In this document: positions 116-20,330 of the stretch, one piece after another | Numbering within the stretch: the stretch's first letter is position 1 | Layout of the letters: each line of letters begins with the position of its first letter | NCBI GenBank assembly: GCA_964247135.1 | Contig: CAXTTL010000030.1 | Coordinates: 1-31,144 of the forward strand | DNA: 31,144 nucleotides | Source of the DNA: an uncultured Deinococcales bacterium | GTDB taxonomy: Bacteria; Deinococcota; Deinococci; Deinococcales; JAAFIG01 | Direction: 5' to 3' | Made by a program: the position numbers and the translations under genes | Notes under the pieces: generated by a model | What the model was told of the DNA's origin: nothing | What the model saw: only the letters and a program-made list of their open reading frames with translations | Databases searched by the model: none

Positions 116-2275
116 TTAGGGGGCAATGATGATGCTTGTGCCAGAGACGGCATTCAACACACGATCCGATCCGTACTGGGTTCCCTGTACCGGATTGGTG
201 AGTGGAATGATTGCCCCTGGATTGTTGGAGCTGACCGTCAACACGCCGGTGGTTTTATTCCAAATTGCCGTTGCGCCAGCATTGTCAAAAGCCGTGCGCA
301 GTAAAAGTCGCTTGGCAATATCTGCCATTGATAAATTAACCACGGGCAAGGTCTTTAATTTGGCGTATTTGCTGGCAACATTTTTCATAAAAATGCACAG
401 CAGGCAATTTCCATTTCCGTAATTGCGCAAGTTCGATTGGTGGACAAAGTGTGGGTTGACCGAACCCGACAGAATATGTGAGATCACCACGTCCGACTCG
501 AAATCCATGATTTCTTGGAAGCTGAGGTCACGTCCCCAGTAACCACGGTAAATCGTGTTGTACTCGTCGGTGAGTTCGACGGGTGTGGTGGTGTTGTAAA
601 AAATGTTGATCGGAAAGCGTGGCTCGAGCAAGATGTCGTTGGCGGGAAGATTGCTTGGGAATCGCAAGCCTTGGTTTGGTGACGGGTTATTTTGCGAGCA
701 GTCTTCCGGGGTGGAAATGCAAATCGGTGGGGTGGTGGGCGCCGAGGTGTTGCTTGCCAAAACCCGAATCCCCAAAGCCTGAGCACCAGTGATCAAATTG
801 GCACTGGCATGGCTTTTACCGGCGTTGACCAGCGGCAAGACCTCGTCGAAATAGCCGAGTCCAGAGTGGTTGCCTGTGACCAAAACGCTGGGGTCAAACT
901 CTTTTGCCGAGAGCTTCAAGCCGCCCAAACCGGTTGCCACCGCAAGGTTTTGGGAGATTTGCGAGTTGACATCTGCCAGGCTGGTGCTGTCATCAAAAGA
1001 CAGGTGTCCAAAGGTGTGATTGATCCAGCGAAAGGCGCTGTGATAACAGTGGGTGACTGCCGAAAGCGCATCGTTGGTGCTGGTGCCAATTGGAAAGCAG
1101 TTCGCCCTCGAGTTGACCTGGTATCCTTCGCCGTTGAAAGCATGGTCGATGGTGAAGCTGTTAAACAGCGGGTTGGTGAAGCGGAAGAGTTGTTGCCAAA
1201 TGACCAAATTGATCACATCGTTGGAACGCAACCTGAAGATACCACTGTTGGCGTGGGTGCTTGGATTCCAGACATCGTTGTCCAAAAAGTAATCGTCGCT
1301 GTGGGCGGCAAAATACATTTTTTGTTCGCCCAAGAACACGCCGCGACTGACCCAGCGAACCAAACCGTATTGTAGAAGCAACGAGTGCATCAAGTATTGG
1401 TTGTGCGCGGCGGTGACTGCCAGACCTTCACGTCCATCGGGTGAGGTGTGGAGTGCGGCGACAACCGATCCGTTGGCGGTTTGCAGCAGCGGAATCGCGC
1501 TGTCGGTGACTTGGGCAAGGTAGGTGTAGGCTTGACGGATGCCAATGCTGATGTCTGGCTTGAGGTCGCTAAAAATTGCCTTACCCTGGGTGGTCAAGCT
1601 GACATTCAGTGGCGTGCTCGAGGTGTCGGCGTAGCCGGTGTAGTTTAATCCAGTGTTGGCACCGTCCGGATAGGCGTACATGGTGACTTGACGAATTTTG
1701 TAATCGCGTTCAAAGTCGCTTAAAATTTGCCATTCAACGGGGTCAAACGCCGAGAGCCAAGTGGTGCCGTCAAAATAAGCCAAATTGTTGGTGGTCAAGA
1801 TCACGCCCGAGTAATTGCCTAACCCTGGTTCAGCCTCGAGCTTATCGCTGGTTAAAATATTTTTCGATGCCACCAAAACGTCAAATGGAACGCCGATTCG
1901 GGTCAAAAAGGTTTTCATGGCGTCAAAACCGGTTTCGGTATCGGTTGCCGTAATTAACAACAGTTTGAGTTGAACCCGTGTTGCTGTGCCCGCCGGTACG
2001 CCCCGAGGGCTGATCAGACCTCTGGTTTTGGCGGCTCGAGTTGGATTGACTGGGAATGCTCGGGCAATGTTTGCGTCGTCGATGGCGGCGGTTTGGACTT
2101 GAGGTTCGGGCAGGTTGTTCAGGTCTGGCAACGGCAGACGGTTGCTCGAGGTTCCAGTTTGGATGGCTGGTTCGGTATCGGTGACGGCATCGTCGGCTGG
2201 TGTGCTTGGCGTTTGGTTGCCGCAGCCAATCACTGCGATGAGCAGTGCAATCGACAAATAACGGTAAATTTTCAT
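116..2275 (-). CDS. Lipoprotein, Agd3-like (CBM87/CE18-type) polysaccharide deacetylase
   Basis: ATG at 2275 with AAGGGGA RBS; signal peptide with VIGC lipobox; motifs HSDDYFL, WINHTFGH and HFVHQSN resemble the metal-binding and catalytic motifs of Agd3. Confidence 0.7.
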   Translation of the reverse strand: MKIYRYLSIALLIAVIGCGNQTPSTPADDAVTDTEPAIQTGTSSNRLPLPDLNNLPEPQVQTAAIDDANIARAFPVNPTRAAKTRGLISPRGVPAGTATRVQLKLLLITATDTETGFDAMKTFLTRIGVPFDVLVASKNILTSDKLEAEPGLGNYSGVILTTNNLAYFDGTTWLSAFDPVEWQILSDFERDYKIRQVTMYAYPDGANTGLNYTGYADTSSTPLNVSLTTQGKAIFSDLKPDISIGIRQAYTYLAQVTDSAIPLLQTANGSVVAALHTSPDGREGLAVTAAHNQYLMHSLLLQYGLVRWVSRGVFLGEQKMYFAAHSDDYFLDNDVWNPSTHANSGIFRLRSNDVINLVIWQQLFRFTNPLFNSFTIDHAFNGEGYQVNSRANCFPIGTSTNDALSAVTHCYHSAFRWINHTFGHLSFDDSTSLADVNSQISQNLAVATGLGGLKLSAKEFDPSVLVTGNHSGLGYFDEVLPLVNAGKSHASANLITGAQALGIRVLASNTSAPTTPPICISTPEDCSQNNPSPNQGLRFPSNLPANDILLEPRFPINIFYNTTTPVELTDEYNTIYRGYWGRDLSFQEIMDFESDVVISHILSGSVNPHFVHQSNLRNYGNGNCLLCIFMKNVASKYAKLKTLPVVNLSMADIAKRLLLRTAFDNAGATAIWNKTTGVLTVSSNNPGAIIPLTNPVQGTQYGSDRVLNAVSGTSIIIAP

Positions 2276-2613
2276 GGTTCCCCTTAATGCTTTGCTTGGA
2301 TGGACTTTAGGCAAATTGGATGGCTTCATTCTCTTCACGATTCTGACCGCTTATGTTACGAAACAGCCCATGAACTGGGCGTTAAACCCGTCCTCGCCTT
2401 GAAAAGCACAAGAATTCAGAACATTAAAGTTTCTTTATTTCGTTCAAAATGAGTAGTTTAACGTGAGCTTCATGAATTAAATTAAGTCCCAAAGATTGAT
2501 GCAATTCTCGAGCTACAGCCTCAACTGGCTCGCTTAAGATTCTCGAGGAGTACTGAAATTTTAACTATTCTCGGACTCGAGCGCCCACAAATTGCGCAAC
2601 CAAAAAACATCAA

Positions 2614-2649
2614 CGAAAAGCCCCGAACTAAAAAGTTCGGGGCTTTTCG
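2614..2649. terminator. Rho-independent terminator downstream of the DGC gene
   Basis: Perfect 16-bp stem CGAAAAGCCCCGAACT/AGTTCGGGGCTTTTCG with a 4-nt loop. Confidence 0.9.
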
Positions 2650-2665
2650 ATTTGCTCAAATAGGC

Positions 2666-4324
2666 TTACAGGACCTCTTCCAGTCGATCATTGCGCACCA
2701 GATTTTTACCGTAACGTTTGGCTTCGTACAATCGGTCATCGGCTCGAGCGATCAATCTTTCAAAATTGGCAACGCTGGTGTCCCAGACCATGCCAATGCT
2801 GACCGTGACTTTCAAACCCGCCTGAATCGCTTCCCAATCGTAATGCTCGACCGTACTGCGGATTCGCTCACAGACCAGCAAGGCATCCTGAGGAGATGAT
2901 CGCGGCAGGACAAAGGCAAATTCTTCGCCGCCGTAACGGGCTGGCATGTCCGAACTGCGCAGGACCGTGTGCAAAATTCCAGCCAAGTGCTGCAAGACCT
3001 GGTCGCCAATCAAATGCCCAAAGGAATCGTTGACAAATTTGAAATCGTCAACGTCGAGCATTGCCACCGGCAAGGGATGGTTGCCAAGGCTGGCACGGGT
3101 AAATTCCTCGGTCAGATAATTCTCGAGGTGGCGGCGGTTGTACAAACGGGTGAGTGGGTCTTGTAAAATAAGCAACTCGAGTTCAGAAGATTTTTCCTCG
3201 AGTTCGACCAGGAGTGTGGTTTTGGCTTGATTGGCTTGCTCGAGCGCCTCGAGGGCTTGCATCAGTTCGACGTTGCGCAGTTGCTCGAGTTTGGCTTCGC
3301 CGCGAAGGCGCTCTGCCTCGCGCTGGGCGTTGAAGACCCGCATTTTTCGGTTGGCGGCATCGTCACGAACCTCTTTTTCCAGACGGTGAAATTCTTCAAA
3401 AGCGCTTAATGCCTGTTCAAAATCGTTTTGTTGCTTAAACGCCTGACTTTTGATCTCAAAACCTTGAAACTCGAGCGATTTAAGATCGCTGTCTTGAGCG
3501 GCTTCGATGGCGGCGCTCGAGTAAGCAATAGCCTCGCTTGCATGGCGCTGCGCAAGTTCGATTTTTGCGGCGTTCAGCAGGCAATAGACCACACCCTCGG
3601 TTTGTTTGTTGGCGCGAACCATCTCGAGTGCGGTATCGAGGGTTGCCAGGGCTTTGGCGTGCGATCCAGAACCTGAAAGCGCCTCGGCAAGGTTGACCAG
3701 GGTTTGGGCGGTAATATCGTGCAGCTCGAGGTCGCGGGTGATGACCAGCGACGCCTCAAAATCGTTGATCGCCTCAATAAAACGTCCGAGGGCGCAACGC
3801 GCAATCCCTCGGTTGGTGAGTGCCGAGGATTTACGAACCAGATCGCCTATCGAATCACAGCGTTCAATGGCTTTGGTGGCATATTCGAGGGAGGTCTGGT
3901 TGTCACCAAGCTGGTGGTACATCCCCGAAATGTTGTTTAAACTCCAGATCATGCCAAGCACATCCTCTAACTCGGTGTTGATTCGGTAGGCGCTAAAAAC
4001 GGCATCGATGGCAGACTCGAACTCTCCTAAGGACGCGTATGCAAAACAGGTGACATTCAAGCAATCGCGCTCGAGCTTGAGGTCCCCAAAGTTACGAGCC
4101 ACCTCGAGTGCCAAATCGAGGTGATGCAGGGCTTGGGCATGATCGCCCGAGTGGAATTGACTGTAGGCGATGTTGCGCCTGGCAAGCCCCTGGGCAAAAA
4201 CATGCCCGATGGCTTTGGCTTGTTCAAGACCCTGCACGCTCTGCTCGAGGCAACGTTCACGGTTCTCGAATCGCAACATCCAAGCGCCGTGCAAAAGCTC
4301 TTCAATTTGAGATCGATTTTGCAT
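2666..4324 (-). CDS. TPR-repeat diguanylate cyclase (GGDEF)
   Basis: N-terminal TPR array, coiled coil, DPLTRLYNRR, DVDDFKFVND, I-site RSSD and active site GGEEF. Confidence 0.93.
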   Translation of the reverse strand: MQNRSQIEELLHGAWMLRFENRERCLEQSVQGLEQAKAIGHVFAQGLARRNIAYSQFHSGDHAQALHHLDLALEVARNFGDLKLERDCLNVTCFAYASLGEFESAIDAVFSAYRINTELEDVLGMIWSLNNISGMYHQLGDNQTSLEYATKAIERCDSIGDLVRKSSALTNRGIARCALGRFIEAINDFEASLVITRDLELHDITAQTLVNLAEALSGSGSHAKALATLDTALEMVRANKQTEGVVYCLLNAAKIELAQRHASEAIAYSSAAIEAAQDSDLKSLEFQGFEIKSQAFKQQNDFEQALSAFEEFHRLEKEVRDDAANRKMRVFNAQREAERLRGEAKLEQLRNVELMQALEALEQANQAKTTLLVELEEKSSELELLILQDPLTRLYNRRHLENYLTEEFTRASLGNHPLPVAMLDVDDFKFVNDSFGHLIGDQVLQHLAGILHTVLRSSDMPARYGGEEFAFVLPRSSPQDALLVCERIRSTVEHYDWEAIQAGLKVTVSIGMVWDTSVANFERLIARADDRLYEAKRYGKNLVRNDRLEEVL

Positions 4325-4489: not shown

Positions 4490-5800
4490 TTAGAATAGAT
4501 TCAATGCAAACTGCATAAAGCGTTGAAGATTGACGCGACCACTTCCCAGGTTAATCCCGTATTGGAGGTCTTTTACAACCAAACCATCGGCGGTGTAGCC
4601 CATCGTTTTGCCCAATTCGCGTAATCCCCAGGCAGAATATGTTTTTTGTCCCAACGCCAAGGCAAACCCTCCGGCAACGATTGGCGCAGCCATGCTGGTT
4701 CCCGTCCATTTTGCCACCCTCAAGTTTGGGGCTGGAACAAAAATGTTCTCGCCTGGGGCAGTCACTTCGACGTTTCCATAGGTCGAAAACGATGATTTCT
4801 TATCGTTCAAATCGGTGCTGGCGACACCGACGGTCAAATCGCCCCAGGTGCCAAAATTTTTGGAGGCATAGGCAGGAAAGGTCACGTTGGTATTGCCCGT
4901 GTTGCCCGATGAGGACACCACAATCACACCGTTCTGGGTTGCCCAGTTGATCTCGGCGTCCAAGGATGCCAAATACTGCGAGCCGAGCGAAAGGTTGATG
5001 ACTTTTGCACCGTGGGCAACCGCCCAGTCGATGGCGGCGACCACGCTGTCAGAATTTCCAGAACCGTTTGGAGCCAGTACCCGAAGCGGCATGATTTTGG
5101 CTTTGGGTGCAACTTGAGCCACGATGCCTGCGACACATGTACCATGACCAAAACCCTTGCTCGAGCCATCAACGTAAACTTCTTGTGGCGTTGCGTCGTT
5201 GTCAACAAAATCGTACATGTCGTGCGGGGCAACCAAACGGTTGGCGAATGCAGGATGGTTAAGATCAATGCCCGTGTCGATCACGGCAACAATGATTCCA
5301 GTGCCAGCTTTTGGTGCCAGGCTCAAGGCTTCGGGCAGTTTTATTTTGGTCCAAGTGGTGGCATTTAAACTGCTGGTGACGCTCGAGACGAGATCGGTCA
5401 CCAACCCAGAGCCGTAAACCGACCAACCCGACGCCCAGGTCGTCCAACCGCTCATGTTTGAGTTGACGGCGGATGCGGCACTGGTGTCTTGTTGAGATTC
5501 CAAGGTGTTTTCGTTGGGGTCGGTGGCGTTAAACGCTTCACGGCTGAGGCGGGCAGCTCGGTCTTGGCTGAGTGCCAAAACCGCCTCGCCGGTTTCTGGG
5601 TGAAAGGTCAGGATTTTGGCATCGTATTTGCTTGCCAAGTTTTCGGCGGTATCCCCTGCTTGAATATTGACCGTCATGAGCCTGCTTGTGCCGGTGACAA
5701 TCGCTGGCAACTGGGCGCAACCCACCAAAATTGAGGGTACGCCAATTAGGGCTACACTGAGGACTCGAGATAGAAACGACTTTCCTATGGATTGACTCAT
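4490..5800 (-). CDS. S8 (subtilisin-family) serine protease lipoprotein
   Basis: LVGC lipobox; catalytic motifs VIDTG, HGT and GTSMA; oxyanion-hole SSGN. Confidence 0.93.
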   Translation of the reverse strand: MSQSIGKSFLSRVLSVALIGVPSILVGCAQLPAIVTGTSRLMTVNIQAGDTAENLASKYDAKILTFHPETGEAVLALSQDRAARLSREAFNATDPNENTLESQQDTSAASAVNSNMSGWTTWASGWSVYGSGLVTDLVSSVTSSLNATTWTKIKLPEALSLAPKAGTGIIVAVIDTGIDLNHPAFANRLVAPHDMYDFVDNDATPQEVYVDGSSKGFGHGTCVAGIVAQVAPKAKIMPLRVLAPNGSGNSDSVVAAIDWAVAHGAKVINLSLGSQYLASLDAEINWATQNGVIVVSSSGNTGNTNVTFPAYASKNFGTWGDLTVGVASTDLNDKKSSFSTYGNVEVTAPGENIFVPAPNLRVAKWTGTSMAAPIVAGGFALALGQKTYSAWGLRELGKTMGYTADGLVVKDLQYGINLGSGRVNLQRFMQFALNLF

Positions 5801-5885
5801 GGTACACCTGCTTTCTTCCGTAACGTCGGTTTATGAGAAGCTGAAATTGAGATTGTCATTCAAAAAACAATCCGTATTGCCTGCC

Positions 5886-7614: not shown

Positions 7615-8406
7615 ATGGATCAACCGATGAGCAACGCGCACGATCTGCAAGGAGATTTCACCAAATCGAGCCTGCCCAGTTTATTGCAGTACTTGGGCAT
7701 GATTGGCGCGACGGGCGAACTGGTGCTGACCATCCCACCAAACGACAAAGCCGTCCTCAGCCTCGAGAAGGGCAAATTGATCGACGCCATTTACCGCGAA
7801 CACACCGGACAACTGGCGCTTTTTCAGGTCATGCAAACCCAAAACGGTTACTTTGCATTCAAAGCCGGAATTTACGATGTCAAAGCCTCGATTGACAGTT
7901 CGCTCGAGCGTCTGTTGATGGGCGCCGCCGCTTTTGAACACGCCCGCACCCAATTTCAACCAGGTGATGTGCCCTCCATTTTGCCCAGTTCGACCTCTGG
8001 GAACATCAATTTGCAAGCCGCCCAGCTTCGGGTGGTCGCCATGATTGACTCTCAGCGCAGCATCAGCCAACTCGCCAGCGCGGTGCGCGGCAGTATCGGC
8101 GACGTCACCGCCTTGATTTCACAATTGGTCGAATCCGGTTTGGTGGCGGTCAAAACCAACACCGTGGAAAGCGTCAACCCACAATTTTTTGAAGACCTGC
8201 GCCCGCGACTCTCGAGCCTGGTCGGACCGATGGCGCACATCATGATGGTCGATGCCGCCGAGCGGCTCGGTTTTGGCTTGGAAAACCTCGACAAAAAATT
8301 GGTTCGCGCCTTCTTGACCGAACTTCACAAAGAAGTCCCCAGCAATCAAATGAAGCAATTTGTGGTGCTGGTCGAACCGTTGTTGCGCCAATACGAAAAT
8401 CAGTAA
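7615..8406 (+). CDS. DUF4388 (PATAN-like) domain protein with a wHTH-like and a C-terminal helical domain
   Basis: LQGDF..SLPSLLQYL..TGELVL..G.LIDA pattern; IDSQRSISQLA..ISQLVESGLV wHTH-like segment; LVGPMA-type C-terminal helix bundle. Confidence 0.75.
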   Translation: MDQPMSNAHDLQGDFTKSSLPSLLQYLGMIGATGELVLTIPPNDKAVLSLEKGKLIDAIYREHTGQLALFQVMQTQNGYFAFKAGIYDVKASIDSSLERLLMGAAAFEHARTQFQPGDVPSILPSSTSGNINLQAAQLRVVAMIDSQRSISQLASAVRGSIGDVTALISQLVESGLVAVKTNTVESVNPQFFEDLRPRLSSLVGPMAHIMMVDAAERLGFGLENLDKKLVRAFLTELHKEVPSNQMKQFVVLVEPLLRQYENQ

Positions 8407-8463
8407 ACAGGCGCTGAAAGATCAAACCCGAGCATCAAAAAATGAATCGCAAAAAGGAGTTTT

Positions 8464-9669
8464 ATGCAGGACAGTTACAATCTTAGGTTAAAACAACCCA
8501 TCCTCGAGCCGCTCGAGCGTTCCAACAAAGCGGCGGTGATTGCGGCGGGCATGGGCGTCTCGAGTGAAACCGTCGAAAAACTTTTGGGCGCAGGTGGTTT
8601 GTTGTTAAAACCGCAGTCGATTCAATCTGTCAACGACATTGCCACCAAGTTTAAAGCGGCAGGGGTCGATGTTGAGGTTGTACCGCACACAGAAAATGTT
8701 GTTCCAGGCAAAGCCAATGCAGGCTCGGGGGTTTCCCAGCAGTTAAATTCAGTTGCAACCATCAAAGCTCCAGATACAACGTTCGGAACTCGCCCAAAAG
8801 GTTGGTTGTCGTTGCAATACAAAATTCTGCCACTGGCAATTTTGCCGGTCTTGTTGCTGGGCGGCGCATGGCTCACCGATACGTTCACCAGCCGCGCCAA
8901 AACCTCCGAGGGTTTGTTGGTGCGCGGTGCGCTTCAGACAGCCGCCCTGTTCTCGAGACAAATTTTAAGTGGTGTGGACGATGCCAGCGGTGGTTTAAAC
9001 ACCCCAGTTAACTTGGCAATTGTTCAACAAAACGTGACCGATTTGTTCAAAGCTCAGGTTTTACCACTGACCCACGTGGCTCTCACCGACACGACAGGCA
9101 AATTGATTGCGGTTTACGATCAAGATTTTAGTCGCAACGATATTGGTTCAGAAAAATACAATGACCCAGTTGGAACCTACAAAAAACTGGCTCCAGAAGA
9201 TGTCACAACGCTTGAGCGAATCGGGGCACTGAACATCTCGCAAGACACCAAAAACGCTTTGCAATTCGCTGAAAATCCCAATCCCGAAAACCCGTTCGCC
9301 CAAATTTTTAAGGACGCCCAAGGCAAAACCGAATACTTTGTCGCCTACCCCATCGAAAATAAACTGGGTTCGGTGCATCTGGCACTCGACGCCAGCACCA
9401 TCGGCGAACCCGCCGCCCGATCAATCAACATCACACTGATTGTCCTGGCGATCACCCTGGCGTTGGTCAGCGCCATCGCCAGCTATTTTGCCAACGCCAT
9501 CTCGAGACGAATGCTGAACCTGGCAAGCCTCGCCGACCAGGTCAGCATGGGTGATCTCGAGCAAGCCATCACCGCCACCAGCAAAGACGAAATTGGCGAT
9601 CTGGCTCAAGCCCTGGAGCGAATGCGCATCAGTTTGCGAGCCGCCGTGACCCGAATCTCGAGGAGATAA
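8464..9669 (+). CDS. Membrane receptor-like protein: N-terminal cytoplasmic domain, two TM helices, extracytoplasmic domain and C-terminal HAMP, with no output domain
   Basis: AAGGAG RBS; two hydrophobic helices; HAMP motif ADQVSMGDLEQ..DEIGDLAQALERMR ends 13 aa before the stop. Confidence 0.85.
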   Translation: MQDSYNLRLKQPILEPLERSNKAAVIAAGMGVSSETVEKLLGAGGLLLKPQSIQSVNDIATKFKAAGVDVEVVPHTENVVPGKANAGSGVSQQLNSVATIKAPDTTFGTRPKGWLSLQYKILPLAILPVLLLGGAWLTDTFTSRAKTSEGLLVRGALQTAALFSRQILSGVDDASGGLNTPVNLAIVQQNVTDLFKAQVLPLTHVALTDTTGKLIAVYDQDFSRNDIGSEKYNDPVGTYKKLAPEDVTTLERIGALNISQDTKNALQFAENPNPENPFAQIFKDAQGKTEYFVAYPIENKLGSVHLALDASTIGEPAARSINITLIVLAITLALVSAIASYFANAISRRMLNLASLADQVSMGDLEQAITATSKDEIGDLAQALERMRISLRAAVTRISRR

Positions 9670-9670
9670 C

Positions 9671-10705
9671 ATGAAAAAATATTTTTGGATTCTCTCGAGC
9701 TTGACCATTGCCGCGATTGGACTCTCGAGCTTGGCGCAAACCCGAGAACTAAATCTGTTCACCTGGAACGATTATATCGACCCTGCGCTGGTGAAAAAAT
9801 TTGAACAACAGTACAGCGCCAAAGTGAAGATCGAGATTTTTGACACCAACCCAGATTTGATCCAGAAGCTCGAGAATAAGGGTTTGGGCAAATACGATGT
9901 GGTGATCCCAACCGATTACGTGATCGGGGAAATGTTGCGCCGTCATCTACTGCGCCCACTCGAGATGCGCAAGATCATCAATTTGCGCAATTTGGCAGAT
10001 CGTTTTCGCAGTCCCATTTATGACCTCGGCAACAAATTTAGCGCCGCCTACCAATGGGGAACGCTGGGGATTGCCTACCGCAAAGACAAGATCAAAAACC
10101 CCGAAAAAACCTGGGGTTTGCTGCTGGACCCCAAGCTTCAAAAAGGCAAATTTGCACTCTACGATGCGCCCAGAGAGATGATCGGCTCGGCGCTTTTATA
10201 CCTGGGCAAGGGCATGAGCAGCACCAACAAGAACGACATCGCTCGAGCCGAAAAAGTTGTTTTGGCAGCCAAAGCGCGTTCGCTGGGATTGCTGAACGGC
10301 GCAGACGTTCGCGCCAAGTTGCTGAAGGGCGAAATTGTTGCCGGAATTTTATTCAACACTGACGCGGGGCAACTGGCGGCGCAAAATCCGAACATCGGTT
10401 ACTTCATTCCCAAAGAGGGAGCGCAGATTTACGTGGACAACATGGCGATTCCGGTCGGCGCACCCAACGCGGATTTGGCACACCAATTTATCAATTTTAT
10501 TCTGGACGCCCAAAACGGCGCGACGCTGTCCGAATACACCAAATCGGGCACACCCAACGAAAAATCCAAAGCCTTGCTGCCGATAACCGACCTCAAAAAC
10601 GCCATCACCTACCCGGCAGCAGACACCAAACTCGAGTTTATTGCCGACCTGGGCGACCAAGAAAAACTGTACTTGGATGCCTGGAAAAAAATCAAAAACC
10701 CCTAA
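9671..10705 (+). CDS. PotD/PotF-family polyamine ABC substrate-binding protein (orphan)
   Basis: Signal peptide; LNLFTWNDYID, YDVVIPTDY, YQWGTLGIAY, IPKEGA..DNMAIP and AHQFINFILD. Confidence 0.88.
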   Translation: MKKYFWILSSLTIAAIGLSSLAQTRELNLFTWNDYIDPALVKKFEQQYSAKVKIEIFDTNPDLIQKLENKGLGKYDVVIPTDYVIGEMLRRHLLRPLEMRKIINLRNLADRFRSPIYDLGNKFSAAYQWGTLGIAYRKDKIKNPEKTWGLLLDPKLQKGKFALYDAPREMIGSALLYLGKGMSSTNKNDIARAEKVVLAAKARSLGLLNGADVRAKLLKGEIVAGILFNTDAGQLAAQNPNIGYFIPKEGAQIYVDNMAIPVGAPNADLAHQFINFILDAQNGATLSEYTKSGTPNEKSKALLPITDLKNAITYPAADTKLEFIADLGDQEKLYLDAWKKIKNP

Positions 10706-12390: not shown

Positions 12391-12597
12391 ATGCCAACCC
12401 TGTTGGAAACCCTTAAAAACCTATCGATCTCAGACCGCGCCGATCTTGCACAGGCGCTCTGGGATAGCGTTCTTGAGGAATCAGAAAATTTAGAATTGAT
12501 TGAATCGCACCGCGCCGAACTTGAAAAACGCTTAAATAATCCTGATCCAAAATTGATTCCTTGGGAAGAAGTCAAATCTCGCTTGCAAATCTCATGA
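12391..12597 (+). CDS. Addiction-module antitoxin (TIGR02574-like), leaderless
   Basis: LSISDRADLAQALWDSV..ELEKR..IPWEEVK pattern; TGcTAAACT 6 nt before the ATG. Confidence 0.85.
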   Translation: MPTLLETLKNLSISDRADLAQALWDSVLEESENLELIESHRAELEKRLNNPDPKLIPWEEVKSRLQIS

Positions 12598-12893
12598 GAT
12601 TTTGGATCACTTTCCGCCAAGAAGCGCTTGACGATCTTGAATCTGCCATCACATATTTCTCGAAATATCCTGGATTCTTTGAACGTTTCAGACTTGAATT
12701 GGATTCTCGAGTTGAACATTTGCGTGAATTCCCTGAGATGCACCAGAAAGTATATTTGACTGTTCGCAGAATGCTTTTAACTCAATTTTCTATTGCGGTG
12801 TACTACATTGTGCATCTCGAAACTGAAATGATTGAAGTGATTGCGGTGATGGATGTTCGCCGCGATCCCAGACTCTGGCAAACGCGCCTTTGA
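12594..12893 (+). CDS. Type II toxin, RelE/ParE family
   Basis: ATGA overlap with the antitoxin; EALDDLESAITYF..FPEM..VRRMLL.QF..AVYY..IEVIAVMD.RRDP. Confidence 0.85.
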   Translation: MRFWITFRQEALDDLESAITYFSKYPGFFERFRLELDSRVEHLREFPEMHQKVYLTVRRMLLTQFSIAVYYIVHLETEMIEVIAVMDVRRDPRLWQTRL

Positions 12894-12895
12894 CT

Positions 12896-14212
12896 TCAGA
12901 CCACAGGCAAAGCACAAACGAACTCTGCGCCGCCCTCGAGACGGTTTTTGACGCTGATCTTGCCGCCGTGAAGCTCGAGAATCGTTCTGGCAATCGCCAA
13001 CCCAAGTCCACTGCCGCCACTCGAGCGGTTGCGGCTTTCATCGACGCGGTAGAAGCGATCAAAGACGTGTTCCAGACTTTCACTTGGCAAGCCTTGACCG
13101 GAATCGCTGACGATCACCCGAGCGGTGTTCTGGGTGCTCTCGAGGGCAATACAGACCGTGCCGTGTTCGGGCGTGTAACGCAGGGCATTGTCCAGCAGAT
13201 TTGAGAGCACTTGCGCAATCCGGTCAGGGTCGCCGTGAAGCTCGAGCCTTTCGGGCGCCCTGACCTCGAGTTTGACGCGCTTTTGCTGGGCGCTGGGTTC
13301 AAAACCAGAGGTGATTTCACGAATTTTAGCCGCCAAATTAAAAGAACGCGTCTCGAGTTGCAACTGTCCCGCGTCGGCGAGTGACAGGGTACGTAAATCT
13401 TGAACGAGCCGCGCCAAGAGCTGCGTTTGTTTGGAAAGTTTTTTGATTTCTTCTATCGACAGCGGAAAAACACCATCTTCGATTGCCTCGAGTTTGGCTT
13501 GCATCACCCCAATCGGCGTGCGCAGCTCGTGGGCGATGTCGGCAACCATGTTTTTGCGTTCGCGCTCTTGACGCTCTAAACTTTCAGCCATCGCGTTGAA
13601 ATTGGTTGCCAGGTCTTCTGGCTCGCCCGTGATGCTTGAAGGTGGCATCGGTGCTCGAGCGCTTAAATCACCGCCGCGCATTTTTTTGGCGGCTTTGGAC
13701 ACAGCCTCGAGCGGTTGCGCCAAACGACGCGCAAAAATCGTAGACACCACGATCCCAAGCAATGCCGAAATGGCAATGCTAATCAGTTGCGAACTGCCGA
13801 GCGCCCGAAAGAAAAAATCTGAATTGCGGTGGGGCGGTTTGATGTTGGGCAACTGGGCAATCAAATCGGTACTCAAAGAATTGACCATCAAAGGCGCACC
13901 TTTGGAAAACGGCGCTGAGTTGCTCGAGTTTGACGCCCCTTGATCCCCACCTGAAGGATCGCCAGGACGCGCAAAAATCACCAAACGATCAAAAGAATCG
14001 GGGGTGATGTTGATCCCGTTCTCTTGAAGTTGCCGAATTCGGTCTTGTTGATCTTTGGGCATGGTGAAATACCGAATTGAGGTAATGGCACCAAACGAAA
14101 CCGTAAAGGTAAACATGGCAAACAAAACCACCATCATCATCATGCCTGCCAGTCGCACCGACAAGGGAACACGCCAAACTTTGGCTCGAAAAAACTTGAC
14201 AAACTTGGTCAT
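12896..14212 (-). CDS. BaeS-like sensor histidine kinase
   Basis: Two TM helices, HAMP, H-box DIAHELRTP, N-box NLLDNALRY, DSGQG, FDRFYR and GSGLGL; ATGA overlap with the response regulator. Confidence 0.93.
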   Translation of the reverse strand: MTKFVKFFRAKVWRVPLSVRLAGMMMMVVLFAMFTFTVSFGAITSIRYFTMPKDQQDRIRQLQENGINITPDSFDRLVIFARPGDPSGGDQGASNSSNSAPFSKGAPLMVNSLSTDLIAQLPNIKPPHRNSDFFFRALGSSQLISIAISALLGIVVSTIFARRLAQPLEAVSKAAKKMRGGDLSARAPMPPSSITGEPEDLATNFNAMAESLERQERERKNMVADIAHELRTPIGVMQAKLEAIEDGVFPLSIEEIKKLSKQTQLLARLVQDLRTLSLADAGQLQLETRSFNLAAKIREITSGFEPSAQQKRVKLEVRAPERLELHGDPDRIAQVLSNLLDNALRYTPEHGTVCIALESTQNTARVIVSDSGQGLPSESLEHVFDRFYRVDESRNRSSGGSGLGLAIARTILELHGGKISVKNRLEGGAEFVCALPVV

Positions 14213-14892
14213 ACGCCGCCCCACAATCGGTAGCCAATACCGCGCACCGTCTCGAGCAAATCCCTTGCGCCCGCATCGTCAAGTTTACGCCTTAGATTTT
14301 TCAGGTGTGCATCGACCACGCGCTCCAAAGCGTCCGATTCGGGCAATGCCGCCTCGAGCAGTTCGGTGCGAGAAAATGCCCGCGCCGGCGAACGGGCGAG
14401 CGTCTCGAGCAGACGGTATTCGGTGGGGGTGATCTCGAGTCGGGTGCCATGAATTTTGACGATCACCGATTGTGTGTCCAACTCGAGCGAACCGACCCGC
14501 AAGACGTTGCTGGTTTGCGGATTGACGCGCCGTAAGACCGCTTTGACCCTCGCCACGACCTCGCGGGGACTGAAGGGTTTGACCACATAATCATCAGCGC
14601 CAAGTTCCAAACCGATCAGTTTGTCAATGTCTTCGGCTCGAGCCGTCAGCATGATGACAGGCGTTGTGCCGTCGCCGCGCACACGCCTTAAAACCTCGAG
14701 ACCGTCAAGGATCGGCATTTGAATGTCGAGCAGAATTAAATCGGGTTTGGTGGCGCGGTACAAATCGAGCGCCCGCTGTCCATCGAGCGCCCGCTCGGTG
14801 CGCCAACCCTCGCGGCGCAAGTAGGCTTCGAGCACTTCGGCAATCTCGAGTTCGTCTTCGACGATCAATATCAGGTTGCTGCTGGGGGTCAT
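14209..14892 (-). CDS. OmpR-family (BaeR-like) response regulator, leaderless
   Basis: IVEDE, LLDIQMP, GADDYVVKPF and wHTH ETVRGIGY; CATAAT 8 nt upstream of the ATG. Confidence 0.95.
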   Translation of the reverse strand: MTPSSNLILIVEDELEIAEVLEAYLRREGWRTERALDGQRALDLYRATKPDLILLDIQMPILDGLEVLRRVRGDGTTPVIMLTARAEDIDKLIGLELGADDYVVKPFSPREVVARVKAVLRRVNPQTSNVLRVGSLELDTQSVIVKIHGTRLEITPTEYRLLETLARSPARAFSRTELLEAALPESDALERVVDAHLKNLRRKLDDAGARDLLETVRGIGYRLWGGV

Positions 14893-15681: not shown

Positions 15682-15728
15682 CAATTTCACATGTCTTTGA
15701 CCAAAAGAAAACACGATGATTTTCAAAA

Positions 15729-15762
15729 TTCACACAACCTGCACAATTCCTCCGCATACCAT
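15729..15762 (+). promoter_or_regulatory. Export operon promoter with three 11-bp-spaced boxes
   Basis: TTCACA (15729), TGCACA (15740) and TCCGCA (15751), then -10-like TACCAT. Confidence 0.5.
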
Positions 15763-15801
15763 TCAGACGTACACTCGAGGATGGGTGAACAGGAGGAACG
15801 C

Positions 15802-17187
15802 ATGGTTTTTTGGAAACAAGTCTCGAAGCCCAACTGGATCACCGCAAGCGCCTTTGCCGTGATCGTCGGATTTTCGCCAGGCATTGCACAATCAAACCCC
15901 GAGTTGACGCTCGAGCAAGCCTTGAAAGCCTTACCGAACAGTTTGGAATGGCAGCAAGCCGATTTGACTTTTTTGAACGCTCAAAAAAGTTTGGACAGCG
16001 CCAGAGCGGCAGCAGGGTTAAGGGTGAACGCTGGGGCGGACACCAGTTTGGGGTTTCCAAGTTCGGGCAACAGCAGCCAAACCCTAACGGTTTCGGCAAC
16101 CGCGAGTTTAACGGTATTGCCGTGGTCGAGTACCTTTGACGCAGTGCGGAGTGCGGAACGCGCCTTGGCTCGAGCCGAATTGGATCGGGTTGACACCAGA
16201 AATACTTTGGCGCTCAATGTCTTCAATCAGTATTTTACTGCTCGACTCTCGAGCACCGATGTCGAACTGGGCAAAACAAACCTGAGTTTGAGCGAAGCCC
16301 AACTCAAAGTTGCCACGGCACAACAAAAAAATGGACAAATCAGCAAAGACAGCCTTTTGAACGCACAAAAAAGCCTCGAGACTGCGAATCTAAACGTCCT
16401 TCAAGCAACAAGTACGCTCGAGGTCAACCGCCTGACGCTTTGGAACAGCCTGAACCTCGAGATTTCGGACGCGGTGTTCTCGAGCATTCCAAGCGAACGG
16501 GCATTAAGCACCGCCAGTTTGGATGATTTGACCGCCAAAGCCTTGACCAAACGCAGCGATGTGCAAAAAGCGCTCTCGAGGATTAGCGACGCGCAAGATG
16601 CACTTTCTTCGGCGCAACGAGATCGTGTGGTGCCGAACGCCAGTGTGAATGTTGGTGTGACCAACTCGAGCGTCGGCGGCATCTCGAGCGGCTTGAACCT
16701 GCAAACAGGGAGCTTGAGCGTCACGGGAACAGTGCCAGTGGTTGCCAATACGACCACCACTGGCTCGAACACCACCGGATCAAACCTGACCATCAGTGCC
16801 AGCGTCAGCATTCCGATCATCGCGCCGAGCGGCGACACGAAAATCTCGAGTGCCGAGGTGAGTTTGCAAAGCGCCAAAAAGTCGCTCGAGCAGACCAAAT
16901 TAAGCGCCAAATTGGACGTGCGCCAAAAGTACAACAATGCCAAGCTTGCAGTGGCGAAACTGAACCTTGCCAAAACGACTTTGAGCACTTCACAAAAAAG
17001 TTTTGAAACCACCAAAGCCAGATTCGACGCGGGTTTGAGCACATCCAACGACCTCGAGCAAAGCCGCATCAATGTCTTGCAAGCAAACCGTGACCTCGAA
17101 CAAGCCACTCTCAATCAAGACCTCGCCGCGTACCAACTCGAGAATGCAGTTGGTGAAATCAACATTCTTCCTGGGGGAAATCTATGA
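15802..17187 (+). CDS. TolC-family outer membrane efflux protein 1
   Basis: AGGAGG RBS; signal peptide; LTLEQAL; two OEP helical repeats; RFDAGL..DL motif. Confidence 0.85.
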   Translation: MVFWKQVSKPNWITASAFAVIVGFSPGIAQSNPELTLEQALKALPNSLEWQQADLTFLNAQKSLDSARAAAGLRVNAGADTSLGFPSSGNSSQTLTVSATASLTVLPWSSTFDAVRSAERALARAELDRVDTRNTLALNVFNQYFTARLSSTDVELGKTNLSLSEAQLKVATAQQKNGQISKDSLLNAQKSLETANLNVLQATSTLEVNRLTLWNSLNLEISDAVFSSIPSERALSTASLDDLTAKALTKRSDVQKALSRISDAQDALSSAQRDRVVPNASVNVGVTNSSVGGISSGLNLQTGSLSVTGTVPVVANTTTTGSNTTGSNLTISASVSIPIIAPSGDTKISSAEVSLQSAKKSLEQTKLSAKLDVRQKYNNAKLAVAKLNLAKTTLSTSQKSFETTKARFDAGLSTSNDLEQSRINVLQANRDLEQATLNQDLAAYQLENAVGEINILPGGNL

Positions 17188-18248
17188 AAAAAATCTTCGT
17201 ACCTGCACTGCTCTTGGTCGCCAGCTTCGCCCTCGCCCAAACCGCCGCCACGCCAATCACTTTGAACAGCGCCATTCAAAAAGCCTTTAAATTCGGTCCA
17301 GATTTGGCATCCAGCACGGCATCGCTCGAGAATGCCAAAGCCAATTTGGCTTCGACTTTGGCTGATCCAAGTTCAGTCATCACCCAGATCACGACCGCAC
17401 AAAACGCCGTGGAATTGCAAAGCGTGGGATTGCAGGCGCAACGCATTACCGTGACGGGCAACGTCACGACAGCATTTTTAAACTTGTTTGAGGCACAAGA
17501 AAACATCGCGGTGCTGCAAGCCAACATTGCGCTGGATCAGACAAATTTGAATGTTGCCAAAGCCAAACTGGCGCAAAAGAACGGCACGCAGCTCGATGTC
17601 GCCAAAGCCGAAAACACGCTTGCCAACGACACCCAAAGCCTGGCAAACGCCAACAACAACCTGCCGATTTTAAGCAACAAACTCGAGCCACTGCTCGGAA
17701 CGCCGCTCAATTCAAACCTCAAAGCCGCCGAAGCGCCAGCCTTCAAAGAGGTCAAAATCGATTATGCCAGCTTGGAAAACGGTCTCGAGAAACGCGTCTC
17801 CAGCGTCTTACAAGCCGCGCAAAGTGTCGAAGTGGCGGACTTGAACGTGCAACTTGCCGACAATGATTACACCGCACCAGCCACCCTGCGCGACAACAAG
17901 ATCACCCTCGAGAATGCAAAGCGCAGCTTGGAGACCAGCAAAGCCAACGCCGTGACCAGCCTGAAAGATGCCTACCGCAATGTGTTAAACGCTCTGGAGT
18001 TGATCAAGGTTGCCAGCAAAAACCTCGAGAATGCCAACACCTCTTTGGCGCAGGACAGCGTGAAATTCAAGAGCGGCACGATCTCGAAGGTGGCATTGCA
18101 ACAAACCCAAAACTCCAAATTGCAATCTGAATACAGTTACCTGACCACAACCGACAATTATTTCAAAGCCCTCAGTCAACTGTCCTCCGCCGCTGGAACG
18201 GACGTGACCGGTTTGGTTGCCATCGGGCTGGGAGAAGGTGCGAAATGA
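17184..18248 (+). CDS. TolC-family protein 2 (short, mostly helical)
   Basis: ATGA overlap; signal peptide; OEP-like helical repeats (KFKSGTISK). Confidence 0.75.
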   Translation: MKKIFVPALLLVASFALAQTAATPITLNSAIQKAFKFGPDLASSTASLENAKANLASTLADPSSVITQITTAQNAVELQSVGLQAQRITVTGNVTTAFLNLFEAQENIAVLQANIALDQTNLNVAKAKLAQKNGTQLDVAKAENTLANDTQSLANANNNLPILSNKLEPLLGTPLNSNLKAAEAPAFKEVKIDYASLENGLEKRVSSVLQAAQSVEVADLNVQLADNDYTAPATLRDNKITLENAKRSLETSKANAVTSLKDAYRNVLNALELIKVASKNLENANTSLAQDSVKFKSGTISKVALQQTQNSKLQSEYSYLTTTDNYFKALSQLSSAAGTDVTGLVAIGLGEGAK

Positions 18249-19558
18249 CAAGTACCCGACCACGGGCAAAGAGGGGTTTTAACACGCGGTGGTTGCTTGT
18301 TTTGTTACCAATTCTTGCGCTGGTCGGATTGTTTGCTTCGGGAATCATTAAACTACCAGGCTCGAAGAGCACCGACACGACCGCCAAACTCGAGACGGTC
18401 AACGCCACACGAGGCACGTTTCGGGTTTCGGTGACGGGTCCCGGCACGCTTGAAGCCGTGCAAAGTTTGGATGTCAAACCGCAAGTGAGCGGCACCATTT
18501 TAAGCCTACCCAAAGAGGGACAGCGCGTTTTAAAGGGTGAATTGATTGCCACACTCGACCAAACCACCCTGCAACGAACCTTTGAGAACGCACAACTGAG
18601 TTTGAGAAAAGCCAACGCCCAACTCGAGTCACAACGCAGTTCGCAAGCCAGCAGTCGCGCCAGTCAGCAGCAACAAATCGCCTCGAGTCAAGCCAGTTAT
18701 TCCAATGCCCTACTCCAGGTGACGAACGCCCAGACCGCTTTGAACAGCGCCCACAAACTCTTTACGGCAGGCGGAAACTCGAGTTTAGACGTACAAAATG
18801 CCCAAAGCACACTCGAGACAGCGCAAGCCAACCTCGAATCGGCGCGGGTGGCACTCGACACCAACAAAAATGCGGTGGGTTTAAAAGCCAGTTCGGACTC
18901 GCAAGACCTCAAAAACCTGCAACTCGCCATCGATCAAGCCAATATCAGTTTGCGCAACGCCCAGACCGACCTGGCAGACACCAAAATTTACGCCCAGATG
19001 AACGGCGTGGTTTACAACATCGCCGCCCAAATCGGCGGCTCGCCGAGCAACGGAGCTGCACTTTTCACGCTTCTGGACGACTCGAGCGTCAATTTGCCCG
19101 TACAGGTGGACGAGACCGAAATTGCCAAAATTAAACTCGGGCAGAGCGCCGAACTGAGCCTCGACGCGATTCCAGACCAAAAATTTCAGGGCAAAGTCAC
19201 CAAAATTTCGCCGCAAGCCAAAATCTCGCAGAACATCGCCGTGTTTTACGTGACCGTGACCGTGCCGAACGCCGACCTGCAACTGCGCCCAGGCATGACC
19301 GCCGAAGCCGAGGTGATCTCGCTCGAGGTGGCAAACGCACTAACGCTGCCCAAACGCGCCATCCAGACGGTGCGAACCCGCTCTTACGTGACCGTGATCG
19401 ACCCCAAAACCAAAGTCCAAGACACCGTGCGCGTGCATACCGGCGCGGACGACGGCACGAACATTGTGATCGAATCTGGACTTGACCCGCAGCAAACCGT
19501 GGTGCTTCCAACCCGTGCCAGCGCAGGCTCGAGCGGCGCCGCCATTGGGGGCAACTGA
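18245..19558 (+). CDS. Periplasmic adaptor / membrane fusion protein (MacA/HlyD-like)
   Basis: N-terminal TM, VKPQVSGTI lipoyl half, long alpha-hairpin, VDETEI and LRPGMTA. Confidence 0.9.
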   Translation: MTSTRPRAKRGFNTRWLLVLLPILALVGLFASGIIKLPGSKSTDTTAKLETVNATRGTFRVSVTGPGTLEAVQSLDVKPQVSGTILSLPKEGQRVLKGELIATLDQTTLQRTFENAQLSLRKANAQLESQRSSQASSRASQQQQIASSQASYSNALLQVTNAQTALNSAHKLFTAGGNSSLDVQNAQSTLETAQANLESARVALDTNKNAVGLKASSDSQDLKNLQLAIDQANISLRNAQTDLADTKIYAQMNGVVYNIAAQIGGSPSNGAALFTLLDDSSVNLPVQVDETEIAKIKLGQSAELSLDAIPDQKFQGKVTKISPQAKISQNIAVFYVTVTVPNADLQLRPGMTAEAEVISLEVANALTLPKRAIQTVRTRSYVTVIDPKTKVQDTVRVHTGADDGTNIVIESGLDPQQTVVLPTRASAGSSGAAIGGN

Positions 19559-19559
19559 G

Positions 19560-20309
19560 ATGGACGCCATCTTGAAGCTCGAGAACATCACCAAAACCTA
19601 CACGATGGGCGAAATGGATTTTCAAGCCCTGAAGGGCGTGAGCTTGGAGATTTTTGATGGCGACATGGTGGCGCTGATGGGTCCAAGCGGAAGCGGCAAA
19701 ACCACCATGATGCAAGTGATCGGGCTGTTGGATCGCCCAACCACCGGCGAGTATTATTTGCGCGGACGTGACGTGACCGAACTGACCGAGAACGAACGCT
19801 CTGAAGCCCGTAACCTCGAGATTGGCTTTGTCTTCCAAGCCTTCCATTTGCTGAGCCGCCAGAATTTGCTCGAGAACGTCGAAGTGCCGCTGACCTACGC
19901 GGGTTGGAATTCCAGAGAACGCCGCGAACGCGCCATGCAGATGCTCGAGAAGGTCGGGCTGGCGGACAAAGCCAGAAACCTGCCGAGCCAGATTTCGGGC
20001 GGTCAAAAACAGCGCGTCGCCGTGGCGAGGGCGCTCACCATGAGTCCAGCGATTTTGCTGGCGGATGAACCCACGGGCAACCTGGATTCCAGAACTTCTG
20101 AAGAAATCATGGCATTGTTTCAAGAACTCAACGATGAGGGCAGCACCGTGGTGATTGTGACCCACGAACCCGACATTGGGGCGCACTGCAAACGCATTGT
20201 ACGGCTGCGCGACGGTCTGCTCGAGTCCGACACCATCCAAGCCAACCCACGCCGCGCCCTCGCCTACGGCACAAATGCGCCGAACACCGTCAGCGCCATC
20301 AGCATTTAA
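19560..20309 (+). CDS. ABC transporter ATP-binding protein (MacB/LolD-like)
   Basis: Walker A GPSGSGKT, signature ISGGQKQR, Walker B LLADEPTGNLD and H-loop VTHE. Confidence 0.95.
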   Translation: MDAILKLENITKTYTMGEMDFQALKGVSLEIFDGDMVALMGPSGSGKTTMMQVIGLLDRPTTGEYYLRGRDVTELTENERSEARNLEIGFVFQAFHLLSRQNLLENVEVPLTYAGWNSRERRERAMQMLEKVGLADKARNLPSQISGGQKQRVAVARALTMSPAILLADEPTGNLDSRTSEEIMALFQELNDEGSTVVIVTHEPDIGAHCKRIVRLRDGLLESDTIQANPRRALAYGTNAPNTVSAISI

Positions 20310-20330
20310 ACTCTCGAGGAGGATGAAGTT

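Follow-up and report, generated by a model that had tools for sequence, protein, structure and literature searches.

A HAMP-terminated receptor and its PATAN/STAC-like neighbour as a candidate bacterial version of the Af1503/Af1502 signalling pair in an uncultured Deinococcales bacterium

Af1503 of Archaeoglobus fulgidus has long been the structural model for the HAMP domain, and has long posed the question of how a receptor that ends at HAMP passes its signal on. The same question is raised by a locus on a 31,144-nucleotide contig (CAXTTL010000030.1, assembly GCA_964247135.1; the whole contig is hereafter called the window) from an uncultured Deinococcales bacterium (JAAFIG01). Here, three open reading frames (ORFs) on the forward strand encode a cytoplasmic protein of 263 amino acids with a PATAN/DUF4388 domain (7615–8406), a transmembrane receptor of 401 amino acids that stops after HAMP (8464–9669) and a secreted solute-binding protein of the PotD/PotF family (9671–10705; 344 amino acids, with an N-terminal signal-like segment). 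The gaps between them, 57 nucleotides (8407–8463) and one nucleotide (9670), and the coordinates and strand of all three agree with those given in the initial annotation of this DNA, which had proposed an undescribed system in which the ligand-bound binding protein docks on the receptor and the free HAMP domain signals by contact with DUF4388. We give about even weight to a reading of the locus as a bacterial (Deinococcales) version of the Af1503/Af1502-type signalling pair, with the binding protein as probable input and the PATAN/winged-helix part of the first protein as probable output.

The receptor was modelled by AlphaFold2 with a mean predicted local distance difference test score (pLDDT) of 89.2 from a 56-row alignment, in the order of a compact alpha/beta domain (residues 5–74), a disordered linker, a first transmembrane helix extended as a long helix, a PAS/Cache-like domain, a second transmembrane helix and HAMP. 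On the forward strand of the window these parts correspond to a cytoplasmic N-terminal alpha/beta domain (residues 1–78, 8464–8697, from the model and jackhmmer conservation), transmembrane helix 1 (residues ~115–139, 8806–8880, from hydropathy and a long model helix at 117–170), a periplasmic PAS/Cache-like sensor domain (residues ~140–320, 8881–9423, from the model and Foldseek), transmembrane helix 2 (residues ~321–339, 9424–9480, with a hydropathy score of 2.51 and a model helix at 310–361) and the HAMP domain (residues 342–393, 9487–9642; Pfam PF00672, E 4.2e-12, 46.6 bits). HAMP is the only Pfam match on the receptor, which ends 8 residues beyond it, and the closest match by sequence in the PDB is the HAMP domain of Af1503 (4gn0, E 1.5e-6). 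The periplasmic domain of the window receptor has no Pfam match; Foldseek likened it to the sensor domains of WalK, DctB, CitA and PctD, and the more distant relatives P0034, P0035 and P0149 scored with Pfam sCache_3_2.

Ending at HAMP is not peculiar to this copy. A word-indexed search for full-length relatives (40–100% identity) gave 33 clusters, all of 440 amino acids or fewer and all with HAMP as their only Pfam domain, and named Deinococcus receptors of 508–653 amino acids likewise stop about 10 residues after HAMP. An exhaustive search of 1.84 billion representatives, run with no length filter, returned 1318 matches at E ≤ 1e-3, 64 of them at E ≤ 1e-10. Among the best 150 of these 1318, HAMP was detectable in 147 (the other three being N-terminal fragments that lack it), and 142 of the 147 HAMP-bearing representatives end no more than 20 residues past it. 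Of the five that do not, three contain several HAMP domains (one of these, when scanned, proved to be a chemoreceptor), one has a tail of 70 residues and the last is P0149. Because 142 of the 147 share this end point, the HAMP ending is a family trait and the receptor is not truncated; continuation of its relatives into a catalytic domain, against which the initial annotation had set its proposal, is not what the family shows.

A scan of species-representative genomes found five related loci (L001–L005), all in Deinococcales metagenome-assembled genomes, with 82–84% identity in the receptor. L001, L004 and L005 are syntenic throughout, in the order thiolase, PATAN protein, receptor, binding protein and citramalate synthase; L002 has the same stretch with the binding-protein match split in two pieces, and the L003 contig ends before the PATAN gene is reached. 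The trio is therefore kept together in four of the five loci, namely those that hold all three genes, so that the synteny put forward as a check in the initial annotation was found, in close relatives. Ratios of non-synonymous to synonymous substitution rates (dN/dS), computed against three related loci at a dS of 0.5–0.75, were 0.04–0.07 for the PATAN protein, 0.14–0.16 for the receptor and 0.06–0.07 for the binding protein, and within the receptor 0.09–0.27 for the N-terminal domain and 0.07–0.16 for transmembrane helix 2 with HAMP. With values of 0.04–0.16 against these relatives, all three genes are real and maintained under purifying selection. Synonymous divergence itself was uneven along the receptor gene: about 0.30–0.35 in transmembrane helix 2 and HAMP (9424–9666), 0.30–0.66 in transmembrane helix 1 (8806–8880) and about 1.0 in the periplasmic domain. 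The low values could be due to constraint on the messenger RNA near the coupled junction described below, or to recombination.

The receptor gene and the binding-protein gene meet at a junction (9660–9673, forward strand) in which GAGGAG (9660–9665) lies within the final receptor codons, followed by the TAA stop codon (9667–9669), a single base and the ATG of the next gene (9671). We read this arrangement of an internal Shine-Dalgarno sequence, stop codon, one nucleotide and start codon as translational coupling; its spacing, judged by tblastn coordinates, is identical in L001, L002, L004 and L005, the loci with a full-length receptor match. The junction also bears on whether the receptor might be a decayed kinase, chemoreceptor or cyclase that has lost its former catalytic part. 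Sub-threshold NCBIfam matches to histidine kinases and chemoreceptors, which end in the HAMP region and in some cases extend back into the region of the sensor and transmembrane helix 2, speak for such an origin. The end point common to the family, the purifying selection on the receptor as a whole and on transmembrane helix 2 with HAMP, and a coupled gene that starts directly after the receptor stop codon all speak against it. We regard decay as hardly credible, and on these three grounds the truncated-gene reading was rejected. The description of the receptor as ending in a free HAMP stands as far as a C-terminal catalytic part is concerned, and needs amending in that a conserved cytoplasmic domain is present at the N-terminus.

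What might such a receptor address? The protein encoded upstream begins with a PATAN/DUF4388 (PatA_N) domain (residues 12–105, 7648–7929; Pfam PF14332, E 5.9e-9, 36.4 bits against a gathering cutoff of 25), continues with a winged-helix-like region (residues ~132–185, 8008–8169) and closes with a helical domain that resembles DUF8082 and STAC (residues 186–263, 8170–8403), all on the forward strand. Its AlphaFold2 model had a mean pLDDT of 75.9 from an 11-row alignment. The PATAN part was modelled as beta-rich, with block pLDDT of 75–90, and the winged-helix part as three helices and a strand at pLDDT 58–74; the latter assignment draws on this model and on sub-threshold Pfam matches to DUF742 (E 0.0037), MarR, HTH_47, HTH_20 and ScpB. 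The protein has no hydrophobic segment, and no Response_reg match was obtained even at E ≤ 10, so its architecture is not PATAN-REC. Pfam and NCBIfam agree with the DUF4388, terminal HAMP and PotD-like assignments of the initial annotation, whose inventory of domains had overlooked the N-terminal domain of the receptor together with the winged helix and the STAC-like domain of its neighbour.

Two side observations concern this upstream gene. Met5 is invariant, and the homologue clusters P0071, P0073 and P0074 begin at the residue aligned with it, so the true start may lie at 7627 rather than at 7615. The leading Foldseek matches of the whole model were to SEA and GATOR1 complex subunits (E 3.4e-4 to 2e-3, probability 0.9–0.98, template-modelling score only ~0.25); they hint that the PATAN domain and winged helix are akin to domain pairs in subunits that regulate GTPases, with which the weak DUF742 match agrees.

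The C-terminal domain may tie this protein to Af1502, the small protein coupled to Af1503. PF26309, labelled DUF8082 in the Atlas output, was precomputed on the C-terminal part of the homologues, and PatA_N + DUF8082 clusters of ~264 amino acids occur there in Deinococcota, Thermodesulfobacteriota and Chloroflexota. On the window protein itself, PF26309 was not matched with the local copy of Pfam. The domain was modelled as three helices (189–217, 227–238 and 243–261; block pLDDT 64–87), and when the whole model was compared with the PDB by Foldseek it matched Af1502 (5a1q_B) with probability 1.00, a target-normalised template-modelling score of 0.60 and a root-mean-square deviation of 3.5 Å over 72 columns at 22% identity. 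A sequence profile of the domain placed Af1502 first among 177,635 distinct PDB sequences (E 0.016 when built from four sequences, 0.029 from seven). The profile alignment covers the segment of the I/L-G-P-x-A motif, in which LVGPMA of the window protein (residues 202–207) pairs with IGPIA of Af1502; all 11 aligned sequences share G204 and P205. From the predicted fold and the motif, residues 186–263 look like a STAC-like domain.

According to PMC4834066, Af1503-like receptors are often genomically coupled to Af1502-like STAC proteins of 60–90 amino acids that have the motif LGPx(x)A in common. Translation of Af1502 is coupled to that of Af1503, the paper states, and transport components are over-represented in the neighbourhoods. 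It also describes Af1502 as too divergent for BLAST, HMMER or HHblits to join it to its kind, the family having been recognised by genomic location, helix pattern and the LGPx(x)A motif. Both the window receptor and Af1503 have two transmembrane helices, an outside sensor and HAMP as the last domain, HAMP being the best PDB match by sequence; beside each lies a gene whose product combines a [LIV]GPxA motif with a helical fold of the Af1502 type, and transport-related genes are found nearby. Membership of the Af1503 type, which is marked by STAC coupling, holds here only if DUF8082 is accepted as STAC-like. There are differences as well. The family as described is archaeal, whereas the window system and its relatives belong to Deinococcales and Deinococcus species; the STAC-like domain here forms the C-terminus of a 263-residue protein encoded upstream, whereas Af1502 is a 68-residue protein encoded downstream; and the window receptor has an additional cytoplasmic N-terminal domain and a PotD-like gene coupled to its own.

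The pairing of receptor and STAC-like domain recurs far from the window. Searches with tblastn against plasmids led to two Deinococcus replicons, a plasmid of Deinococcus sp. QL22 and one of D. taeanensis. The QL22 plasmid encodes a 329-residue protein that aligns over its entire length with the PATAN protein of the window at 24% identity (E 3e-14), matches DUF4388 weakly and contains the STAC-like C-terminal domain twice. This DUF4388-like gene lies 61 nucleotides upstream of the gene for a HAMP-terminated receptor of 270 amino acids, 30% identical to the window receptor from transmembrane helix 1 to the end (E 3e-30), and the order is as in the window. On the D. taeanensis plasmid, the gene for a HAMP-terminated receptor of 317 amino acids overlaps by 4 nucleotides that for a GntR+FCD regulator, the last 100 residues of which correspond to the STAC-like domain (hhalign 97.2%, E 4.6e-11) in a protein without PATAN. 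The QL22 module is divergent from two genes for TctC-type solute-binding proteins, the D. taeanensis module from a Peripla_BP_6 gene with a complete operon for an ATP-binding cassette (ABC) importer of the branched-chain type. As both replicons keep the STAC-like part, behind a DUF4388-like domain in one and GntR+FCD in the other, the sequences indicate that this domain travels with HAMP-only receptors and that the domain ahead of it is exchangeable. The contact of HAMP with DUF4388 that had been proposed at the outset is therefore better placed elsewhere: the D. taeanensis relative has a STAC-like part without PATAN, and most likely it is the STAC-like domain that HAMP contacts, PATAN and the winged helix being the output. 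Further plasmid contexts were not found with tblastn of the window receptor, P0035 or P0082, which matched the QL22 record only; P0037 matched only the QL22 and D. taeanensis records, and the window PATAN–STAC-like protein only that of D. taeanensis. A six-frame hmmsearch of the window and the fetched loci with the C-terminal-domain profile disclosed no STAC-like ORFs beyond the genes already known, and the same profile found no fused STAC in any receptor relative.

This recurrence makes it very improbable that the three genes are unrelated neighbours, held together by the close kinship of the compared genomes. Such a view draws on the similarity of the five loci, whose housekeeping flanks are syntenic as well, and on scans for promoters and terminators that did not rise above the level of chance (2 observed, 2.8 expected; 10 observed, 9.8 expected). 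Against it, the receptor and the STAC-like domain stay paired on two plasmids at 24–30% identity among otherwise different neighbours, the junction of one nucleotide holds an internal Shine-Dalgarno sequence, and an Af1503/Af1502 pairing is reported from archaea in PMC4834066.

Several results weigh against reading the locus as an Af1503/Af1502-type pair. The Foldseek match to 5a1q_B stood at rank 18 with an E-value of 0.061, and small helical bundles tend to match easily in such comparisons of models; the profile E-values for Af1502 are marginal (0.016–0.03) with ~29 residues aligned, and the STAC domain of CbrA was not matched in the PDB profile searches. Relatives of the PATAN–STAC-like protein are scarce, with 8 and 9 clusters in word-indexed searches, to which a profile search added only P0223 and P0224; a weak pointer to adjacency is that the longest NCBI contig is 14668 bp both for the receptor relative P0029 (61% identity) and for the PATAN–STAC relative P0073 (81% identity). 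Synteny of the full trio is seen in close relatives only, with housekeeping flanks syntenic too, and by itself tells little about function. No PotD-like gene follows the QL22 module, so the binding protein does not always belong to the set. In the texts consulted we found no binding experiment for any Af1503-like receptor and STAC pair. Lastly, the N-terminal domain of the receptor could be its real output.

That domain was modelled at pLDDT 89–97 as strand 5–9, helices 16–30, 34–42 and 53–65, and strand 70–74, ahead of a disordered linker (residues 79–112, with 79–98 at pLDDT below 50). It had no Pfam match, no PDB match by sequence better than E 0.23 and no Atlas match above 0.76; its topology may resemble that of the C-terminal domain of ribosomal protein L7/L12. 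With local jackhmmer searches it was detected in 129 of the 214 pooled relatives of the receptor and in 69 of the best 150 representatives, and it is present in all 31 listed Deinococcus-type relatives of 508–653 amino acids (P0036–P0066). Were this domain the actual output, the DUF4388 protein would merely share a transcript with the receptor and act as a regulator in its own right. Its breadth among the representatives and the Deinococcus-type relatives, and the purifying selection on it, favour this; the receptors of the QL22 and D. taeanensis plasmids do without it and still have a STAC-type neighbour, as does Af1503 as described in PMC4834066, and we consider the alternative improbable. 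Since receptors without the domain keep such a neighbour, the surface shared with the partner must be sought in the transmembrane/HAMP part.

The binding protein raises the question of input. It matched Pfam SBP_bac_8 (101.6 bits), and its nearest NCBIfam models were PotF (138.5 bits) and PotD (129.5 bits), far under their equivalog cutoffs of 636 and 582; by these scores it is placed in the wider family only, not with the PotD/PotF equivalogs. The best relatives of solved structure were Listeria Lmo0810 (4gl0, 198.9 bits), Streptococcus pneumoniae PotD (4eqb, 176.2 bits) and Escherichia coli PotF. Aligned with E. coli PotD and PotF, W32-N33-D34-Y35 stands opposite WTEY of PotD and WSDY of PotF, and T81/Y83 opposite S83/Y85; E169, F228 (Trp in PotD), Y254 (Trp/Phe) and D256 complete the set, and Tyr293 of PotD, or Tyr314 of PotF, is replaced by Ser292. 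We take these positions, by the PotD and PotF structures, to be polyamine contacts. Most of them are kept or conservatively changed, and judged by this alignment the ligand is likely to be polyamine-like. In L002 the two pieces of the binding-protein match overlap (4774–5816), one at 85% over 89% of the query and the other at 36%, which points to a frameshift, a misassembly or the presence of another, diverged copy.

As had been noted at the outset, no importer genes accompany the PotD-like gene: neither permease nor ATPase of an importer was found among the 23 larger window ORFs scanned. Receptor relative P0149 (725 amino acids) combines sCache_3_2 and HAMP with a signal-like hydrophobic segment, an NMT1/THI5-type binding domain and LysM; it could be a real fusion of receptor and binding protein, or a pair of neighbouring genes that gene calling ran together. 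The coupled junction, the lack of importer genes nearby, the solute-binding neighbours on the plasmids and P0149 tie the binding protein to the module, and a role as co-sensor of the receptor is plausible. The receptor and the STAC-like protein might also be partners in a module that controls solute transport, with the PotD-like protein not a co-sensor at all, being instead either a component of a PotABC transporter whose importer lies elsewhere or a regulated target. For this we see a real chance, clearly the lesser one: it would fit the proposal, in PMC4834066, that STAC regulates solute transport and that Af1503-like receptors lie among transport genes, as well as the D. taeanensis operon of receptor and GntR–STAC, which is divergent from an ABC importer operon in the classic layout of regulator and target, and the retention of most of the contact positions, as in a working transport protein. 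It fits poorly with the missing importer genes among the ORFs scanned in the 31-kb window, with the translational coupling of the binding-protein gene to that of the receptor, and with P0149, in which a binding-protein domain is attached to the receptor itself.

For the module read as an Af1503/Af1502-type pair with a co-sensor, the following course can be proposed. With a polyamine-like amine bound, the periplasmic PotD/PotF-like protein would dock on the receptor at its PAS/Cache-like domain, or the ligand would act on that domain directly. We infer that the resulting change would pass from the periplasmic domain through transmembrane helix 2 and HAMP of a dimeric receptor, and that HAMP or the membrane-proximal surface would then bind or release the STAC-like domain (residues 186–263) of the PATAN protein. 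Output would follow from PATAN acting on a protein target, from the winged helix acting on DNA, or from both; by analogy the target of PATAN might be the motor of type IV pili. In Synechocystis, according to a preprint (bioRxiv 10.1101/2021.06.11.447907), the PATAN domain of PixE binds both PilB1 and PilC and is enough for output. Co-folding of two copies of receptor residues 112–401 with residues 186–263 of the PATAN protein scored 0.27/0.25, below the mark of 0.32, in a run without controls, and was used neither for nor against this contact.

Parts of this arrangement have counterparts in other systems. PixE and PixG of Synechocystis, PatA-type (PATAN-REC) regulators, share an N-terminal PATAN/DUF4388 domain able to act as output; unlike them, the window protein has a winged helix and a STAC-like domain in place of a phosphorylatable REC input, and no kinase is involved. 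NspS-MbaA of Vibrio cholerae similarly has a PotD-like periplasmic protein encoded beside a receptor with a periplasmic domain and HAMP; MbaA runs on into GGDEF and EAL, whereas the window receptor has HAMP only. In the SLC5-type kinases CbrA and CrbS/MxtR a small helical bundle likewise sits between the module in the membrane and the signalling parts in the cytoplasm, with STAC covalently placed between transporter and histidine kinase; here the STAC-like domain belongs to a separate soluble protein and there is no kinase. In PMC4834066, too, STAC is the link in CbrA between the SLC5 transporter domain and the kinase domain. In a 2026 cryo-electron microscopy preprint (PMC13022988), the STAC bundle of CbrA is docked on the cytoplasmic side of the membrane domain.

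The system is therefore not as undescribed as the initial annotation held, HAMP-only receptors coupled to small STAC proteins being in print (PMC4834066). What is known is the poorly understood pairing of a HAMP-only receptor with a STAC partner; what is new is a bacterial variant in which the STAC-like partner is fused to PATAN and a winged helix or to GntR, not a new class. The pairing of receptor and STAC was reportedly described in 2015 by Korycinski et al. (J Mol Biol). In the literature searched, outside of which that 2015 paper fell, no text was found that links PATAN or DUF8082 with STAC or Af1503-like receptors, and the 2015 paper may already list STAC fused to PATAN or GntR, or bacterial Af1503-like receptors. 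An Af1502-like domain fused to recognisable effectors—PATAN and a winged helix here, GntR beside an ABC importer in D. taeanensis—offers an experimental handle: a reporter, or a phenotype in motility or competence, can now be tied to a HAMP-only receptor, and D. taeanensis is cultured. It would also place two Pfam families of unknown function, in the PatA_N + DUF8082 proteins, in a defined signalling context.

More tentatively, and as a possibility we rate as doubtful, STAC/DUF8082 may be a general docking module by which HAMP-only receptors, widespread in bacteria and archaea, recruit or release interchangeable effectors, often fed by solute-binding proteins of different families. The effectors would then be PATAN with a winged helix in the window, GntR-FCD in D. 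taeanensis and a bare STAC domain in Archaeoglobus, and the outcome would be a class of transmembrane signalling without phosphorylation and without a second messenger.

Elsewhere in the window the only ABC genes among the scanned ORFs (19482–21638) are of the MacB/FtsX type, with HlyD and OEP neighbours. They belong to a MacAB-type efflux cluster on the forward strand (15691–21638) made up of two OEP outer-membrane proteins, an HlyD adaptor, an ABC ATPase and a MacB/FtsX permease; the cluster adjoins the two-component pair described below and has no relation to the PotD-like protein. PADLOC defence models gave no match for the three proteins of the locus. On the forward strand at 12561–12893, an ORF of 110 amino acids with a match to the ParE toxin (E 3.2e-5) stands between the citramalate synthase gene and a convergent pair of HAMP histidine kinase and OmpR-type regulator (12896–14892, reverse strand). 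At the other end (116–4324, reverse strand), an Agd3-like deacetylase with a CBM87 domain lies beside a TPR-GGDEF diguanylate cyclase, which looks like an exopolysaccharide/biofilm pair, upstream of an S8 peptidase gene; the peptidase is present as a single copy in the window and as two tandem copies in the related loci.

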